Assembly (NCBI GenBank): GCA_965153455.1
Contig: OZ234493.1
Span: forward strand, 16,296,213 to 16,360,212
Reading direction: 5' to 3'
Source of the DNA: Sphagnum compactum
Taxonomy: Eukaryota
DNA: 64,000 nucleotides
Shown here: one piece after another, positions 2,311 to 44,130 of the stretch
Numbering within the stretch: the stretch's first letter is position 1
Layout: each line of letters opens with the position of its first letter
Program-made: the position numbers and the translations under genes
Notes under the pieces: generated by a model
Seen by the model: only the letters and a program-made list of their open reading frames with translations
Told to the model about the DNA's origin: nothing
Databases searched by the model: none

Positions 2311-2634
2311 AGGGCTCAAAACGCAATCTGAATTTCCAAGGCGCCACGTGGCATCAATTTTTCTAATTTATGGAGCTGAAAATCAAAAGTTCAAAATTCA
2401 GGCTCAAAACGCAACCTAAATTTTCAGGGCGCCACGTGGCATCAATTTTTCCAATTTATGGAACTGAAAATCAAAAGTTCAAAACTCAGGAAAGTTTGAT
2501 TTTCTGTCAGTTGGCCTGGTGGGGGAATGCATTCTATGTGTGTGTTACACAGTTCATAATGGAGGACAATTTATGGAGCTGAAAATCAAAAGTTCAAAAC
2601 TCAGGAAAATTTGATTTTCTGTCAGTTGGCCTGG
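2311..2634. repeat. Local tandem duplications (~89-bp and ~115-bp units) forming the retrotransposon target site
   Basis: GGCTCAAAACGCAA...GCGCCACGTGGCATCAATTTTT...TTATGGA.CTGAAAATCAAAAGTTCAAAA occurs twice, and AATTTATGGA.CTGAAAATCAAAAGTTCAAAA three times. The uninterrupted copy GTCAGTTGGCCTGGTGGGGGAATGCATTCTATGTG (~2506-2540) matches the sequence split by the element at 2634/8084. Confidence 0.85.
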
Positions 2635-2859
2635 TGTCATGGCCTAGGATATTTTTGGATACTTTTGGCAATGTCATGGCCTAGGATATTTTTGGATACT
2701 TTTGGCAATGTCATGGCCTAGGATATTTTGGGACTAGTATGGCTCAGGGTTATAAAAGGAGATAGTCTGGGGAACAACCCTTTAGCAGATCAACACCAGT
2801 TGATGAGTCAATAAAGCTTGTCTTGTAATTCTCCATTTGTTTGTAGTCGGTCCATAACA
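2635..2859 (+). repeat. 5' LTR (151-bp core 2709-2859 preceded by two 37-bp tandem units)
   Basis: Starts TGTCATGG and ends CCATAACA. TATAAAA at 2751-2757, AATAAA at 2810-2815. Units 2635-2671 and 2672-2708 both read TGTCATGGCCTAGGATATTTTTGGATACTTTTGGCAA. Confidence 0.95.
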
Positions 2860-2861
2860 GT

Positions 2862-2871
2862 TTGATCTGCT
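2862..2871 (+). promoter_or_regulatory. Primer-binding site of self-priming type
   Basis: TTGATCTGCT, 2 nt after the LTR end, is the exact reverse complement of AGCAGATCAA (2784-2793) in the LTR, ~33 nt downstream of the TATA box. There is no TGG tRNA-type PBS. Confidence 0.8.
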
Positions 2872-3226
2872 CCTTCTTCTTGTTTGTTTATTTTGTTGTT
2901 TCAGTAAGTAGCTAGAGGTATATTGGAGTGAAACTTGGAAAGGTTATAGAAGACTATAGGACGCTTCTACTCTCAAAGTTTCAAAAGAAAAGGATATGTT
3001 TTGAGAGAGATCCAAGCATCTGAAGTTTCAAGTGCAGATCTGGTTTTTTGGTCATATCTCCTTTGTGTAAGCTTTTTTGGGTCTGTAACTTTGTGATCTT
3101 ATAGATCATATAGGAATATATGTGTGAGAGAAATTTCATGTCATTTGGACTTGTATTGAGAGAGATCCAAGCATCTGAAGTTTCAAGTTTGACGATTGAA
3201 AGCGCAAAAGTGTGAGAACTACCACC

Positions 3227-4201
3227 ATGGACAACTCCGAATCCAACATCGATCTCACTCAAATCCTCGCCGCCCTTCAGCACCTTCAACAAGAAAATGC
3301 CGTGCTTAGAGACTCGGTGACCCGCCTACAGAATCAGTCACCACCTCCTGCCCCAGTACTTCCTACTCTTGCAATGGCCGCCCAAGAGCCCAAGATTAGT
3401 CTGCCAGAAAAGTTTGATGGAACGCGCCTCAAATTTCGAGGCTTTGTCAGCCAGGTACGCCTGATCATGCAACTACACCCCCGTCGTTATTTTGATGACA
3501 CCACTCGTGTAGGATTTGTTGGAACCCTACTCACTGGGACAGCTGTAGCATGGTTTGCTCCCATCCTGGAAACATCATCCCCTCTTCTACAAGATTTCAA
3601 CGCCTTTATGGCGGAATTTGAAGCAGTATTTGGGGATAGTGATAAGGCCAGGACTTCAGCCAATAAGCTGCGTCGCCTCCAGCAAGGGACACGTTCGGCC
3701 ATCGTCTACGCCTCAGAATTCAGGCAGCTTGCCTGTGACGTTAATTGGGGAAAAGCTGCCTTGATTGATCAGTTTCGCTGTGGGCTTCGTGATGATGTTC
3801 AAGATCTTTTGTTGACACTCGCAGACCCTTCTTCCTTCAGTGAAGCCATCACCCAGGCAATTCGGTGCGATAATCGTCTGTTCGAACGTCGCCAGGAAAA
3901 GAAAGTCACCTCCAACGCCCAGCTTTGGAACGGTCGGCCTACTACGCTCCCCTTAGTTCCCCAAACAACACCAGTTGCCCGACCTGCCTCTTTTGGACCT
4001 ACTCCGATGCAGATCGACACAGCTAAGTTTAAATCTTTGACAGAAGCCGAGAAACTTCGCCGAAGGACAAACAATCTATGTCTTTACTGTGGCAACCCAG
4101 GGCATATAGCTTGTCAATGCCCTCAAAAGCTTGTCAAACTTCAGGTACAAGCTGTGGAAACTCCCCAGGAGTTGGAAAACAAAAACATCCAGTCACAGTA
4201 G
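3227..4201 (+). CDS. gag: Retrotransposon Gag (capsid plus CCHC zinc knuckle; PEG10/sushi-like)
   Basis: ORF 3212-4201 with first ATG at 3227 (MDNSES...). Contains PEKFDG..FRGF..Q, LRRLQQG..Y..EF, and CLYCGNPGHIACQC zinc knuckle. Confidence 0.93.
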   Translation: MDNSESNIDLTQILAALQHLQQENAVLRDSVTRLQNQSPPPAPVLPTLAMAAQEPKISLPEKFDGTRLKFRGFVSQVRLIMQLHPRRYFDDTTRVGFVGTLLTGTAVAWFAPILETSSPLLQDFNAFMAEFEAVFGDSDKARTSANKLRRLQQGTRSAIVYASEFRQLACDVNWGKAALIDQFRCGLRDDVQDLLLTLADPSSFSEAITQAIRCDNRLFERRQEKKVTSNAQLWNGRPTTLPLVPQTTPVARPASFGPTPMQIDTAKFKSLTEAEKLRRRTNNLCLYCGNPGHIACQCPQKLVKLQVQAVETPQELENKNIQSQ

Positions 4202-7200
4202 GAGCCGTGCGACTGGATCTCACCCAACACCACCTTTGCAAAGGCTCCTGTTCCGCTGTTGGTCCCAGTCCCAGTTTCACTCAGTATGTGGACATCATTC
4301 GTATTCCAGAAGACATACCACAAGTGTTAGCTTTGGTGGACTCCGGCGCCACCTCTTCTTTCATCGACCAAACATTTGTCGTCCAACACAACATCCCTGT
4401 GGTCAAAAAGTCAACCCCTGTTTCGGTAGAGGTTATTGATGGGAGAACCATTGCTTCTGGTGCAATCACACACGAGACAACCCCTCTAGAACTTTGTATC
4501 GGCAAGCACACGGAGAAGATTGTTCTCAACATCATTTCCACCCCTCACCATCCCATCATCCTTGGTCTGCCTTGGCTAGAAGCACACAACCCTATCATTG
4601 ATTGGCGATCTAGAACCCTCACCTTCAGTGCACAACGATGCACCTCTCAAGAACCCCACGCTCAGAAAAACACTTTGTCCAGTCCTGCCAAGAACCCTGT
4701 GGTCGAGAACCCAAAGAGGGTCGGAACCAATTCCAGTTTTATCAAGTCTGTTATGTCAAATCCTGCAGTCAAGAACCCTCGGTTGGTCAGAACGAAACCT
4801 TGTCCTGTCAAGAATCTTGTCAAGAATCCTGCCCAGAAAACCAATCCTGTCCAGATCTTTGTTGATAGAGCTGTCCCTTTCTATCGGGCTGCTAAGAATC
4901 TTCAAGTTTTCGCCATCCATGTCAACCCAGCCAACACCACAAACCCCCAATCAGAACCAACACCTGTCAAACTTCCCAAGAAGTACAAGGACTTTGTTGA
5001 TGTTTTTGAAAAGATTAATGCTGATCAGCTCCCCGCCCATAGTCCATATGACTGCCCGATTGATCTAGAAGAAGGACACTCACCACCCTTTGGTCCTATC
5101 TATGGCCTATCGGAACCAGAACTCCAAGCCCTGCGTGATTACCTTACTGAAAATCTTGCCAAGGGGTTCATTCAGCATTCCAAGTCTCCAGCCGGCGCCC
5201 CAATTTTGTTTGTCAAGAAGAAGGATGGCTCCCTTCGACTCTGTGTGGATTATCGTGGACTCAACAAGATAACCAAAAAGAATCGATATCCTTTGCCCTT
5301 GATTTCAGGTCTCCTAGATCGACTACGTACCGGGAAGATCTTCACCAAGCTTGACCTCCGTGGAGCCTACAACTTACTCAGGATTCGCGCTGGTGATGAA
5401 TGGAAGACAGCTTTCCGCACACGCTATGGCCACTTCGAATACACGATCATGCCCTTCGGCCTCACCAATGCACCCGCAGTCTTTCAGCATCTGATGAATG
5501 ATATCTTTCGGGATTACATGGACGAATTTGTCGTGGTCTATTTGGATGACATTTTAATCTTTTCCAAGGACCAGGAAACCCACGACAAACATGTACGATT
5601 GGTGCTTGCGACGCTGCGGGAGCATGGCTTATACGCCAAGTTGGAAAAATGTGAATTCGACAAATCTTCAGTGGCGTTCCTCGGCTACGTGATCTCTCCA
5701 GATGGCATTTTCATGGACAAGTCAAAGGTCGAGACCATCCAGTGTTGGGCTACTCCATCCTCGGTCAAGGACGTTCAACGCTTCCTAGGGTTTGCCAACT
5801 TCTATCGTCGGTTTATCAAAGGCTACTCCAAGATCACAACCCCGTTAATAACCCTAACTTGCAAAGACAAGCCCTTCTCGTGGAATCCAACGGCCCAGGC
5901 TGCTTTTGATACTCTCAAGATGGCATTCACCTCTGCACCCATCCTGATACATCCTGATCCTGCCAAGCCATTCATTGTGGAAACGGATGCTTCAGATTTT
6001 GCCTTGGGAGCTATTCTATCTCAATTTGGAATAGATGGGTTGCTGCATCCAGTTGCTTTTTATTCACGGAAGTTAACCAGTGCCGAAATCAACTACCAGG
6101 TCTACGATAAGGAACTTCTCGCAATCAAAACGGCATTCGAGCAGTGGAGACCGTATCTTGCCGGAGCTCAACATCGAGTCCAAGTTCTGACAGATCACAA
6201 GACTCTCCTTTATTTCACAACTACTCGGACCTTAAACCGTCGCCAGGCACGCTGGTCTATCTTCCTAGCTGATTTCGACTTTGAGATTCAGTATCAACTC
6301 GGCACCCAGCAAGGGAAAGCTGACGCGCTATCTCGTCGTTCAGAATATGAACTTCGAGCGGGGGATGAGGCCTACGGCCAGCAGAACCAGACTTTACTCA
6401 ACCCCGAGCAATTTCGAGTTGCAGCAACAATCAGCACTCTCCCAGACTCATACCTTGTCAGGGACATCAAGATGGCAACTGAGGAAGACACCTGGGCTAC
6501 CAACATCAAGAAGGAACTCCAGGAACGACCAAGGAACCCAAATCGTGATGACTTGGATCAATTTGAGCAGCAAGACGGACTTCTCCTTCGAAATAACCTG
6601 ATTTATGTACCCGAAGGACCTATACACCTAAAAATCCTAAGGGAATGCCACGACAACACCCTGGCAGGTCACTTTGGAATGGCACGGACTCACGAACTAG
6701 TGTCAAGGACTTACTGGTGGCCCAAAATGAACAAGATGCTACGGGAGTATGTCAAGTCTTGTGATACATGTGCTCGATCCAAGGCTCCCAGACATCGCCC
6801 GTTTGGACTCCTACAGCCTCTGTCGATTCCTAGCCGACCTTGGGGATCTATTGCAATGGACTTCATCACGGACCTCCCTACTGTCAGAACCAAGAATTCA
6901 ATACTGGTTGTGGTCGATCGACTCACCAAAATGGCCCATTTCACCCCTTGTTCCAAGTCAATCACGGCAGAAGAGACAGCTCAGTTAATTCTGGACGGGA
7001 TCGTCCGACTGCATGGACTCCCTGAGGAAATTGTGTCCGACAGAGGTCCTCAGTTTGCATCCAAGTTCTGGCATCGTCTATTCGAGCTTCTTGGAGTTGA
7101 CATTCGGCTATCTTCAACTTTCCACCCTGAGACAGATGGACAAACCGAACGGACAAACCAGACACTCGAGCAATACCTTCGCTGCACTGTGAACTACCAA

Positions 7201-7932
7201 CAGGACGACTGGCTGGACCTACTATCTCAAGCAGAGTTTGCTTATAATAACACAACACATGCATCGACCGGGCTCAGTCCATTCTTTGCCAATTACGGTT
7301 TTCATCCCAGGTTCAGCCTTGAAATTCCTGGAGACTCCGTAAACCCCTCGGCTGAAGAAAGGGCCACGAGGCTTGGACAGGTTCAACAGAACCTTATGGC
7401 AGAACTCAAGCTAACACAGGAGTGGCAAAAGAAGCAAGTAGACCGCCGACGCAAGGACCATCCAAACTTCAAGGTTGGAGACAAGGTCTGGCTTCTCAGA
7501 AAGAACATTGCTACCACTCGCCCATGTGCCAAGTTGGATTACAAGCGCCTCGGACCTTTCAAAATCGCCAAATTGGTTGGTCTAGTGGCTTGCCAGTTGG
7601 AGCTTCCACCCCAGTTCAAAATCCACAATGTTTTCCATGTCTCCTTGCTTGAGCCCTATCATGAAAACCCAATCCCAGAACGTCATCAAGAACCCCCAGC
7701 TCCAGTCGAAATTGAAGGCCAAGAAGAGTTTGAAGTTCAGGAGGTGTTGGACTCCAAGAAGATTCGTGGAAAGCTCCTGTACTTTGTCTTTTGGCGAGGT
7801 TATCCTTCTTCTGAAGCTACTTGGGAGCATGTTGGAAACCTAGTTCATGCCCAAGACTTAGTTAATCGGTTTCACCAACGATATCCTAACAAACCGGCTC
7901 CATCTAGAAGATGTCGCTTGAGGAGAGGATAA
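4078..7932 (+). CDS. pol: Retrotransposon Pol (protease, RT, RNase H, integrase, chromodomain), in -1 frame relative to gag
   Basis: LVDSGA protease; RLCVDYRGLN, MPFGLTNAPA and YLDD RT; TDASD/DKELLAI/ADALSR RNase H; H..H..CDTC, SDRG and DGQTER integrase; GPF; C-terminal FEVQEVLD..YFVFWRGYP..ATWE chromodomain. Probably translated by frameshift near 4174-4180 rather than from the ATG at 4078. Confidence 0.96.
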   Translation: MSLLWQPRAYSLSMPSKACQTSGTSCGNSPGVGKQKHPVTVGAVRLDLTQHHLCKGSCSAVGPSPSFTQYVDIIRIPEDIPQVLALVDSGATSSFIDQTFVVQHNIPVVKKSTPVSVEVIDGRTIASGAITHETTPLELCIGKHTEKIVLNIISTPHHPIILGLPWLEAHNPIIDWRSRTLTFSAQRCTSQEPHAQKNTLSSPAKNPVVENPKRVGTNSSFIKSVMSNPAVKNPRLVRTKPCPVKNLVKNPAQKTNPVQIFVDRAVPFYRAAKNLQVFAIHVNPANTTNPQSEPTPVKLPKKYKDFVDVFEKINADQLPAHSPYDCPIDLEEGHSPPFGPIYGLSEPELQALRDYLTENLAKGFIQHSKSPAGAPILFVKKKDGSLRLCVDYRGLNKITKKNRYPLPLISGLLDRLRTGKIFTKLDLRGAYNLLRIRAGDEWKTAFRTRYGHFEYTIMPFGLTNAPAVFQHLMNDIFRDYMDEFVVVYLDDILIFSKDQETHDKHVRLVLATLREHGLYAKLEKCEFDKSSVAFLGYVISPDGIFMDKSKVETIQCWATPSSVKDVQRFLGFANFYRRFIKGYSKITTPLITLTCKDKPFSWNPTAQAAFDTLKMAFTSAPILIHPDPAKPFIVETDASDFALGAILSQFGIDGLLHPVAFYSRKLTSAEINYQVYDKELLAIKTAFEQWRPYLAGAQHRVQVLTDHKTLLYFTTTRTLNRRQARWSIFLADFDFEIQYQLGTQQGKADALSRRSEYELRAGDEAYGQQNQTLLNPEQFRVAATISTLPDSYLVRDIKMATEEDTWATNIKKELQERPRNPNRDDLDQFEQQDGLLLRNNLIYVPEGPIHLKILRECHDNTLAGHFGMARTHELVSRTYWWPKMNKMLREYVKSCDTCARSKAPRHRPFGLLQPLSIPSRPWGSIAMDFITDLPTVRTKNSILVVVDRLTKMAHFTPCSKSITAEETAQLILDGIVRLHGLPEEIVSDRGPQFASKFWHRLFELLGVDIRLSSTFHPETDGQTERTNQTLEQYLRCTVNYQQDDWLDLLSQAEFAYNNTTHASTGLSPFFANYGFHPRFSLEIPGDSVNPSAEERATRLGQVQQNLMAELKLTQEWQKKQVDRRRKDHPNFKVGDKVWLLRKNIATTRPCAKLDYKRLGPFKIAKLVGLVACQLELPPQFKIHNVFHVSLLEPYHENPIPERHQEPPAPVEIEGQEEFEVQEVLDSKKIRGKLLYFVFWRGYPSSEATWEHVGNLVHAQDLVNRFHQRYPNKPAPSRRCRLRRG
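4174..4249 (+). promoter_or_regulatory. -1 programmed ribosomal frameshift signal (slippery site plus pseudoknot)
   Basis: G GAA AAC (4174-4180) in gag frame, 6-nt spacer, stem 1 ATCCAGTC(4187-4194)/GACTGGAT(4211-4218), stem 2 AGGAGCC(4200-4206)/GGCTCCT(4243-4249). Confidence 0.75.
7920..7932 (+). other. Polypurine tract
   Basis: GAGGAGAGGATAA directly abuts the 3' LTR and overlaps the last pol codons and TAA stop. Confidence 0.85.
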
Positions 7933-8083
7933 TGTCATGGCCTAGGATATTTTGGGACTAGTATGGCTCAGGGTTATAAAAGGAGATAGTCTGGGGAACA
8001 ACCCTTTAGCAGATCAACACCAGTTGATGGGTCAATAAAGCTTGTCTTGTAATTCTCCACTTGTTTGTAGTCGGTCCATAACA
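7933..8083 (+). repeat. 3' LTR (151 bp)
   Basis: 149/151 identical to 2709-2859; followed by TSD CCTGG. Confidence 0.96.
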
Positions 8084-10927
8084 CCTGGTGGGGGAATGCA
8101 TTCTATGTGGTGTGTTACACAGTTCATAATGGAGAACAATACACTGGGACATCTGCCGATGTTTGTCTTACTTGAGTTTTACATCATCTTGAGAAGCTTA
8201 TTTGTTTTGCTCTCATCTCACAACTTAACCTTTTAGGAGTCTTTTGTCACCCCCCAGTTCCTTGACTATGTTTCCAGAATGACCTTCCCCGATTTCAGTT
8301 CCAAGGGCAGTGTTTATATGGTGTGACTCAGAATCTTCCTCCAAGCTTTCAACCCATCTTCCCTCTTTGTCCCCATGGCATATCTCTCGAACTGATGGAG
8401 CTTATGATCTTTGACACCTATTGGCTTACGAAACTTATGAAAGTATGAATCTTCTTTCCATGGTGCCCTTTTTGGAATATGCTTGATTCAGACCTCTTTG
8501 ATCACAAGTGATTAATTATATGGAGTACTCATATGAATACTCACCTTGTCCCCCGTTATGTGGTTAGTTTCAAGTTGAACCCTAAGATTTCAGATTTGGA
8601 AAACATGTGATTTTGATCAAAGATTTAGCTCTCTGTAAACAGGAGTGTGTGGACCTATGATAGAACTCTATTGGTGTTAACATCAATATCAAACAATTTA
8701 GTTTAAACTTACAATTGGCCCTTTGTATGTAGAATACCTAGGCATGGCAAATAGTTGTTGTGTGTGGAGAGAAACATTATCTTTTTCTGCACCCATCCAT
8801 CCATAAACTCTTTCAGTTGTCCGTAGCTTTCAAATGACTGTTTGCTTTGGAAATCTCGACATTCACAGTTGTCCAAAAGTGTTTCTTGGCCTATGGTAGC
8901 ATACCATTGTTTTTTTGTTGGTGGTACTGATGCTTTGCTTGTTGCAAAGACAGGAAACTGAACTGCAAATTTTGCTATCAAATTTTGGAGTATAGAATCA
9001 AGTCTACTCGAGGAACTTGAAGCCATGATTGCAAAAAGAAAAAATTAGGTTAGTTATTTGTTATGTTTGTCATTCTTTTATACACATTGAAATAGAAGTT
9101 GGAAAGATGGATACTGAAAAGCCATAGGGTGTTTAAATCCCTTCATATTCTTAAATTCACAAAAAGCTTTTTCAGGGTGTTACATCTAGAAATTGTTATA
9201 TGTCTTGTGGTGTTTTGAATCTACTAAAAATATTAGAAGTCGAAAAGGTTTATGAAACTATAATTGAGCACAAGACATATGCTCATTTTTTGAATGTGAC
9301 GCTTGTGATAAAATTCCACTCATTTGTCTTCTTTTCTATCCTCCTCTCTAGATAATTTTTCAAGTGCTTTCCTTTTAGCATGTGATCGTTGTCATTTATC
9401 AAATCTTGTGGGTTTGTGACCCAAGCTGACAACGTTTAGGTTAGTGCTGCAGGAGCAGTACTACTCTATTTGAGAGAGAGACGGACACAATCAATAAAAG
9501 ACGACGTTAGGCCTACCTCCACTCTAGGTCCCATAAGGGACCAACTAGTTTGAGGTCCTTGACCCAAAAAACCATTAGAATTTTTCTTGTAAAATAGACA
9601 ACTATGATGTCGTTTTAGAGGATAGGATGCACCTTGTGTGTGAGGTTCCTCATTTTGGAGGAACACCTTGTTTGTAAAGGTTCTTCAAAATGAGGAAGCT
9701 TATGCAAAAGGTGCCATTTGATGTTGATGTAGAAATTTTACTAAGGGTAATGTGCCCTCCACATACACTAGAAAAATTCTAGTGGTTCTTTACAATTGTA
9801 ATAAGGGACACAAGATGGGAACCCTTTTAGTGTGTTTACCAAATCCTTAGTATTACCTAATTATTCCCCTATCCTCACTCATGAACATGAAAGGGTCGAT
9901 GATACACATTGAGAGACTGCTTCAGCCAATCAAGAAGAATCTTTTTTTCTACCAACCCTTTTGGAGATCACCTTATATTGTGCATATTTACAAGTCCAAA
10001 CTCAGTTTCACAAGTTTCATACGACCACAGTACAATGGCAGCTTCAACACATGTTCCTCAAATTAAAAAATCATGTTTGAAGATTCCATGTTTTAAATGA
10101 AACACTTCAATAGATTCTCTATTTTTGTTCACACAATTTGGTTCTATTAAAAATACATTTTTGGAAAATTTCAACGTTTCTACAAATAATTCAATTAGTG
10201 TCGAGCTGCCAAGGTACTATGGTACTATGGTAAAGTTTTTTTGTGAGTAACTTTGATGCCAATAGTCAAAAGACCTGAGAAAGTCACAAAACCTTCAATA
10301 GAATGACAATGCAAGTCAAAACATTGTGAAGGAATATTTTCAAGAAAACAATTTTATTCTACAACAACTATAGACAAGTTGTAGGTTACATGTTTCATGA
10401 TGCAAACAAAAATCAGACATATAGATCTTGCACATTTGCAGCAGTTGTGAGAATTCCAAACAAACCCTCAAACCAAAAATTGAATGTCTACTAGGTCCAA
10501 TCTGCAACAGTGAAATCTTATGAAATATGAAAGTTATGGACTACAACACAGTGCGCCTCTATCTGCATTCAAGGATCATACTTACCAGCCCCCACACTCT
10601 TTGCGCACTGGAAAGGAAGTACAAAAGCAAAACTATGCCTTTTGGTTAATATTTGATGAATCCACCCACAAAGAAGACTGGTTTATTGCATTCTTGACTT
10701 GGATCAGCTGCATGAACTTCACACCTGAAACTGTAAAACTTGAAGCCTTGACTTTAAAGGAGATCAAAAGCGGGGTGGCAAAACAAGAAGATTCCAGTTT
10801 TGCTTTTATGTTGCTACACAATAAGAGCTTGCTCGTGCTTTGTCGGCACTTTTCCCCCATCGGAATCCATACCCACTGTTTCAAAGTATATGTCTGGATT
10901 AATGAGTAAAACTTCTTTGAATCTGCC

Positions 10928-40357: not shown

Positions 40358-43531
<3,174 letters not shown>

Positions 43532-43549
43532 AGCCGTCACTCCTCTCCT

Positions 43550-44130
43550 CCACCAGCAAAGAAGCGCAACAAGAACAGCCACAAAATCGCGCACATCCCA
43601 AAAGCCCTTGAAGTCTGGGAATGGCAGATTATGACAGCTTTCTTCGCCACATTATAAGACATAATCTTCTGACAATGGTCATACCTGTCTCCTCCTCCAG
43701 CAAATGTCTGGGATGGCAGATTATGTCATTTTTCTTCACAACATTATATGATATAATCTTCTGATCATCATCATATAGGTCTCCTCTGCCAGCAAAGGAT
43801 GCAACAAAAACAGCCACAAAGATCCCACACAACCTAAAAGCCCATAATGTCTGGGATGGCAGATTATGTCATTTTTCTTCACCGCATTACATAATGGGCC
43901 AGGGGCTTGGCCATTCCATGGTACATTTTGGTCACTATTATGAACAAGTGTATGATCATCACCAGAAGGTTATGTCATATAATGTGGTCACGAAAATGAC
44001 ATAATCTGTGGAATGATCAAGCCCCCTGCACATTATGTTGGGTAATGTGCCAGAGAAGCCAATTATGTTCCCTTACACAACATAATGGGCAGGGACTTGG
44101 CTAATGGGCATGGGCTTGACCATTCCACGT
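43550..44130. repeat. Reiterated motif block in the SerRS upstream region
   Basis: GTCTGGGA(A)TGGCAGATTATG(T/A)CA at ~43613, ~43706 and ~43849; inverted AAAATGACATAATCTG at ~43993; GGGCTTG(G/A)CCATTCCA at ~43903 and ~44112; CCAGCAAA..GCAACAA.AACAGCCACAAA duplicated at ~43553 and ~43789. Confidence 0.7.

Follow-up and report, generated by a model that had tools for sequence, protein, structure and literature searches.

The chromovirus found in the window (the whole 64,000-nucleotide stretch of Sphagnum compactum DNA analysed here) is very probably a Tf1/sushi-type, plant Tcn1-like element that primes its own minus strand, with the transcription start and the cleavage placed by analogy with Tf1. 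Its primer-binding site (PBS) was complementary to the predicted 5' end of its own RNA beyond chance, the pairing covaried and recurred in related loci, and the reverse transcriptase (RT) grouped with fungal and vertebrate sequences; self-priming is therefore likely. The complementarity had a fixed geometry (LTR CA plus 2 nt, and TATA plus 31-38), was conserved among copies and showed compensatory changes.

Structure of the element

The element (5.45 kb, 2635-8083; all features on the + strand) was flanked by CCTGG target site duplications (TSD, 2630-2634 and 8084-8088) and had inserted into a 115-bp host tandem repeat. All the characteristics of a Ty3/gypsy chromovirus were present (TG...CA LTRs, TSD, polypurine tract and the gag-PR-RT-RH-IN-chromodomain order), and the chromovirus identity given in the original prediction was borne out by the Pfam domains, LTRs, TSD and polypurine tract. 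The 5' LTR (TG...CA, 225 nt, 2635-2859) comprised two added 37-nt U3 units (2635-2708) and a 151-nt core common to the 3' LTR (151 nt, 7933-8083), which lacked the two added units; because of these repeats, the 5' LTR starts at 2635 and not at approximately 2709. The cores differed at two sites, and the insertion is therefore young. The surplus of two 37-nt units in the 5' LTR existed despite this near identity of the cores (2/151 differences), and the number of units varied among copies. The element lay within a tandem array of the host, built of 88-bp and 115-bp units (window 2313-2636 and 8084 onward).

A putative TATA box (TATAAAA, 2751-2757) was followed by the predicted self-primer (AGCAGATCAA, 2784-2793), corresponding to nucleotides 1-10 of the RNA if transcription starts where predicted, by a candidate R arm of an R-U5 helper helix (2799-2809), by a candidate poly(A) signal (AATAAA, 2810-2815) and, at the end of U5, by the candidate partner of the R arm (2849-2858). 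Position A2806 of this arm was mismatched in the 5' LTR and was G in the 3' LTR. R-U5 was very short (76 nt). A 2-nt spacer (GT, 2860-2861), which integrase would be expected to trim, separated the LTR CA from the PBS (TTGATCTGCT, 2862-2871).

The leader included a 155-nt tandem repeat (2992-3188) of approximately 1.2 units in the window copy and several in other copies, reaching at least nine units (examples are L042, L171 and L176). The gag gene (324 aa, 3227-4201) matched Retrotrans_gag/Ty3_capsid (Pfam), and a CCHC knuckle was read from its sequence. The pol gene (1299 aa from stop to stop, 4033-7932) overlapped gag in the -1 frame and encoded PR, RT, RNase H, integrase, SH3_Tf2-1 and a chromodomain (Pfam). 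This chromodomain (7729-7881, PF00385, aa 1233-1283) was of the CHD group I type, with the aromatic residues F, W and Y at the three cage positions, assigned by eye in EEFEV...FWRGY after the positions given in PMC3350952. The polypurine tract (GAGGAGAGGA, 7920-7929) immediately preceded the 3' LTR.

At least 150 gag matches, 91-100% identical, were present in the genome (150 scored of 369 candidates). Two family copies (L187 and L188, G000:C1:16948621-16957629) lay face to face within a few kb of one another and had the same gag score, an arrangement which suggests an inverted duplication. Elsewhere in the window, an open frame (43010-43651, - strand) with a weak Seryl_tRNA_N match (E 1.2e-6) is probably exon 1 of a gene for seryl-tRNA synthetase.

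Complementarity between the PBS and the predicted RNA 5' end

The PBS (TTGATCTGCT, as above) was the reverse complement of the predicted primer at all ten positions when both were compared by script, and the primer began 33 nt after the start of TATAAAA at 2751; the perfect complementarity and the spacing of about 33 nt proposed from the sequence alone were thus reproduced. The lack of TGG at this site, another part of the original prediction, extended to the whole 20 nt following the end of the window 5' LTR. The position of the PBS did not depend on the complementarity: the alignment of the 5' and 3' LTRs matched up to ...CCATAACA (2859/8083) and diverged beyond, so the LTR end was fixed independently by the LTR pair and the PBS starts 2 nt (GT) downstream. 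A published definition of self-priming asks for a PBS complement of at least 10 nt to the 5' LTR, starting 0-5 nt after the LTR (PMC6317226), and the window element had a 10-nt complement at offset 2.

When the 225-nt LTR was shuffled 20,000 times with its dinucleotides preserved, a complement of at least 10 nt at offsets 0-5 arose 21 times (p of approximately 0.001, TATA spacing not required), and the flank of the 3' LTR of the same element, used as a control, gave a complement of 6 nt only. Complementarity arising by chance in a single copy would be compatible with such a frequency (about 1 in 1000) when many elements are scanned, and also with the ordinary global folding energy (z from -1.12 to +0.01 in four folds). 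All four folded stretches nevertheless contained the primer-PBS helix in their MFE as well as their centroid structure, and the compensatory changes and the recurrence in related loci described below largely refute chance, which is left as an extremely improbable explanation.

A local hairpin (ATCAAC-ACCA-GTTGAT, 2789-2804) overlapped the 3' half of the primer and could compete with the primer-PBS pairing. The stretch following the primer, AACACCAGTT, was kept in L067 and L070 too.

The RNA runs that matched best were labelled moss or plant metagenome (shares of at most 0.24), as would fit a moss host, and the four examined carried LTR and gag pieces. The 24 RNA runs listed all consisted of assembled contigs, which cannot show a start site; in the four runs examined, the contigs had no shared ends and none crossed the primer-PBS junction with enough flank.

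Pairing among copies of the family

Copies for the junction tally were picked by gag alone, disregarding the PBS: 70 loci, 58 of them with readable junctions, the remaining 12 being truncated, rearranged or with the leader beyond the stretch examined. Primer and PBS paired perfectly in 39 of the 58 junctions, with one G-U pair in 8, one mismatch in 7 and two mismatches in 3, and one junction was rearranged. The deviations were chiefly C-to-T and G-to-A, as is typical of post-insertion decay. When copies picked by LTR similarity were included, pairing was perfect in 61 of 81, and the GT spacer was present in 78 of these 81 copies; offset 2 also predominated across families. Two inherited variants were common among 71 copies of equal length: the base directly before the primer, and +24. 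The latter was A or G, retaining an A-U or G-U pair in the candidate R-U5 helix.

Compensatory changes in subfamily B and in related families

A sister subfamily, B, had a different primer (AGCAGACCAA; L140-L148 and L153 in the same genome, L063 and L064 in metagenome contigs). Its PBS, where present (as in L140-L143 and L063), was TTGGTCTGCT or a decayed form of it, and both sides were altered with respect to the A-type, a U-A pair having become C-G. In L067, a homologous family with an alignable LTR, three pairs were changed. In an alignment of six sequences, 59 of the 60 cells paired and 3 of the 10 pairs were changed on both sides, position 7 being U-A, C-G or A-U. The covariation score of these six sequences was reached by none of 500 shuffles, a result not to be read as a probability because the rows are related (one inherited subfamily B change counts three times), and slid registers paired at 25-50%. 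The covariation anticipated between the PBS and the 5' end of R was thus found.

The same geometry recurred outside the family. The RT matched 79 loci in metagenome contigs, of which 39 were scanned blind for ACA, followed by 2 nt and then by a complement of 9 nt or more to a site lying 30-38 nt beyond a TATA-like word. Twenty of the 39 related loci matched, once each and at offset 2, versus 0/39 on the antisense strand, with a TATA word list that had been broadened after part of the data had been seen; the other 19 gave no match. The matches, several of which came from one family, lay 1.8-2.9 kb upstream of the RT (the distance in the window element is 2.3 kb), and across families the primer was 31-38 nt after the TATA word. 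Primers varied widely (AGGATTCG, AGTCTGAAAT, AGCGGTCAG and others) and were mostly unlike that of the window. When each LTR was crossed with foreign PBSs, at least 9 nt paired in 10 of 380 combinations, all among L075, L091, L092, L114 and L117, the primers of which are identical or nearly so.

For loci with LTR ends set from an LTR pair, at least 9 nt paired in 5 of 12 (window, L083, L092, L098 and L102), compared with 1 of 12 in the 3'-flank control (the AT-rich L079). Among the other seven, the pairing had decayed in L063 and L114, L088 and L093 were cut near the contig start, and L079, L128 and L129 had no match in the span searched.

Comparison of the PBS with host tRNAs

Priming by a host tRNA, whole or as a fragment, or by another small RNA, the match to the LTR being secondary, was also considered. 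Some observations would favor it: the PBS of subfamily B contained TGG at offset 3, and tRNA-Met is given as the primer for 5% of plant Tcn1 elements (PMC6317226). Against it, the dominant subfamily lacked TGG (106 exact A-type junctions vs. 4 B-type). Of 63 scored tRNA loci, 40 were examined; ARAGORN called 39 of them, and the set covered 10 amino-acid types without Met. None was complementary to the PBS region over more than 7 nt, and this longest match was away from the LTR junction, beginning 5-7 nt downstream of the LTR. The proposal that no host tRNA would match the PBS better than the LTR does therefore stood within this partial set. A tRNA ending in AGCAGA-CCA was tried as a primer and rejected: a genome-wide pattern of T-loop plus AGCAGA 3' end gave 13 matches, and none of the 10 examined was a tRNA. 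Furthermore, the PBS differed between families, each tracking its own LTR, a pattern not expected from a fixed tRNA pool. A tRNA or another small RNA is accordingly a very unlikely primer for this element.

Helper helices and proposed mechanism

Tf1 requires three helices, primer-PBS, R-U5 and U5-leader, which together make up the "pretzel" (bioRxiv 2022.12.06.519325). Sister copies could form a singly bulged 10-bp helix between R and U5 (-7.7 to -12.2 kcal/mol, with borderline shuffle p values of 0.04-0.44); the search did not recover it in the window 5' LTR (p 0.995), where 2806 is mismatched. No U5-leader helix stood out in the window element's family (p 0.17-1.0), and one was present in several distant families (p of at most 0.01 in 7 of the 17 loci outside the family). 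It is plausible, judging from these foldings, that one of the two helper helices of Tf1, R-U5, is visible in the family of the window element.

These incomplete helper helices would fit a different role for the inverted repeat, which might be kept for packaging, dimerisation, translation control or DNA end structure while priming proceeds by another route; covariation, moreover, demonstrates pairing and not priming. However, the 3' arm was located exactly at the site of minus-strand priming (LTR CA plus 2 nt) in one family after another, the 5' arm was at TATA plus 31-38, no other primer site was present, and the mechanism has been demonstrated for Tf1 (PMC7175516). Such an alternative function is unlikely, if somewhat less so than a tRNA primer.

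Under self-priming, and following the example of Tf1, transcription would start at or near A2784, nucleotides +1 to +10 would fold onto the PBS with the aid of the R-U5 helix, and the RNase H of the element, the domain of which was present, would cut after approximately +10. From the 3' OH released in this way, RT would copy GT and then U5 and R, the resulting strong-stop DNA would jump to the 3' R, and plus-strand synthesis from the polypurine tract would copy the primer into the new PBS, so that primer and PBS would stay matched.

Rearranged copies and possible footprints of reverse transcription

Several copies departed from the common organization. A G-to-A change at position 2869 of the PBS was present in 9 of 60 copies (L032, L038, L055, L168, L170, L178, L181, L183 and L191), whereas the rate over 23 other CWG sites, one inherited polymorphic site being excluded, was 3.3% (uncorrected Poisson p 2e-4). 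A single inherited lineage was rejected as its origin: the carriers were distributed across the main haplotype groups and were no more diverged than other copies (p 0.84). The simplest reading of G2869A is a methylation hot spot. L163 (G000:C8, approximately 5333052) combined an A-type LTR and leader with a B-type PBS, a G-U pair being kept, and may have arisen by a single substitution or because subfamily B primed it in trans. In L167 (525-812; G000:C2:20801588-20803388), the PBS ran into 69 nt of the inverted U3 of the same copy and then back to the leader, a junction which may be a fold-back at the primer/PBS helix, as expected from plus-strand strong-stop DNA.

Other rearranged copies (L033, L043, L050, L055, L153, L164 and L198) had breakpoints either at the PBS or within or shortly beyond the predicted primer, at approximately +4 to +18: L050 had lost the loop that joins primer and PBS, a gag piece replaced R-U5 in L055, and the breaks of L033, L164, L153 and L043 were at +8 to +18. 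The idea that mis-jumped strong-stop DNA would leave numerous junctions at +6 to +11, marking the cleavage, was also discarded; a pattern designed to catch approximately 40% of them found none, and only single rearranged copies were seen.

Whether genomic copies keep footprints of self-priming in a plant, with the RNA primer copied into the next PBS, is a tentative and rather doubtful proposal drawn from these sequences. The recurrence of G2869A would follow from the copying of a primer whose U at +3 had paired by wobble. The odd copies may equally be the outcome of ordinary repair at an inverted repeat together with a methylation hot spot.

RT lineage

A quick IQ-TREE with midpoint root was built from 69 RT-RNase H rows, including 39 of the 79 metagenome loci, 29 of the 120 listed proteins and 3 seed-plant rows. 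The window RT fell in a group of 61 rows (SH-aLRT 99) together with fungal, fish, amphibian, Planoprotostelium and metagenome rows; the opposite side of the tree (8 rows, SH-aLRT 99) contained Asteraceae, Chara, Closterium and Nannochloris. The nearest named protein among the matches listed was from Cunninghamella (67% identical, at a weak node of 81). Identity over RT-RNase H was 52-67% for named fungal proteins, 56-60% for vertebrate and 45-49% for Asteraceae, with 47% for the fungal Berkeleyomyces. The nearest solved relative in the PDB was Ty3. The original prediction of a fungal-related lineage distinct from that of seed plants was upheld as far as the fungal/vertebrate side of the tree is concerned; none of the named Tf1, Tcn1, PpatensLTR and SM-Tcn1 references was among the 120 + 120 matches listed, and Tcn1 membership therefore rests on features and not on branching.

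One related pol protein (P0072) carried Pfam PF00692, presumably a dUTPase. A dUTPase has been reported in some fungal chromoviruses (PMC2864245).

Significance

Self-priming in plant Tcn1 elements is not new, as it was already predicted (PMC6317226). That prediction rests on a complementarity search and was used as an argument for a fungal origin; no bench proof of self-priming in a plant was seen in the literature searched. The self-priming signature of the window element is real and well supported, and the element probably represents a new family of a kind already predicted to self-prime. The additions of this work are the evidence from covariation and the odd copies (the fold-back and the recurrent PBS change). 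The compensatory changes strengthen the published prediction and reveal no new mechanism. The footprints, if true, would be sequence-level evidence in a plant of a primer copied into the PBS. Since the family is young, abundant and has an R-U5 of only 76 nt, its start site and cleavage should be easy to seek in moss RNA.

Comparison with known systems

A tRNA PBS is missing from most plant Tcn1 elements, and self-priming was predicted for 83% of 1500 (Neumann 2019, PMC6317226). The window element resembled this clade (REXdb; PpatensLTR and SM-Tcn1), described from mosses and Selaginella (Novikova 2010, PMC2864245), in the 5-bp TSD, the gag/pol overlap, the aromatic-cage chromodomain, the absence of a tRNA PBS and the predicted self-primer. 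Its gag (324 aa) and T-rich leader were also similar to those of SM-Tcn1 (323 aa and T-rich, PMC2864245). It differed in length (5.45 kb, whereas plant Tcn1 elements average 6357 and range from 5466 to 9444, PMC6317226), in its LTR (a core of 151 nt vs. 440 in SM-Tcn1), in its U3 and leader tandem repeats, and in its self-priming signal, none having been found for SM-Tcn1 (PMC2864245).

As the original prediction stated, Tf1 of Schizosaccharomyces pombe primes from the 5' end of its own mRNA: the PBS anneals to the initial 11 bases of the transcript, which RNase H cleaves between bases 11 and 12 (PMC7175516). The window element shared with Tf1/Tf2 (and with Tj1, Tosmo1-3 and Tcry1) a PBS complementary to the predicted RNA 5' end and adjoining the LTR CA, the chromodomain and the SH3_Tf2-1 domain. 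The predicted primer was 10 nt long vs. 11 in Tf1, the third helix of the "pretzel" was not evident, and the window element had a CCHC in gag and pol in the -1 frame, whereas the fission-yeast elements are described as lacking CCHC and as having one ORF or a stop codon (bioRxiv 2022.12.06.519325).

The -1 gag-pol overlap is typical of the group containing Cryptococcus Tcn1 and the fungal and vertebrate Tf1/sushi elements (bioRxiv 2022.12.06.519325), and Cryptococcus Tcn1 was proposed to self-prime (PMC7175516); the window element differed in its plant host. The chromoviruses of seed plants (Tekay, Reina, CRM and Galadriel) shared the domain order of the window element; the three Asteraceae proteins lay on the other side of the tree, and the seed-plant chromoviruses are mostly primed by tRNA-Met (48-90%, PMC6317226).
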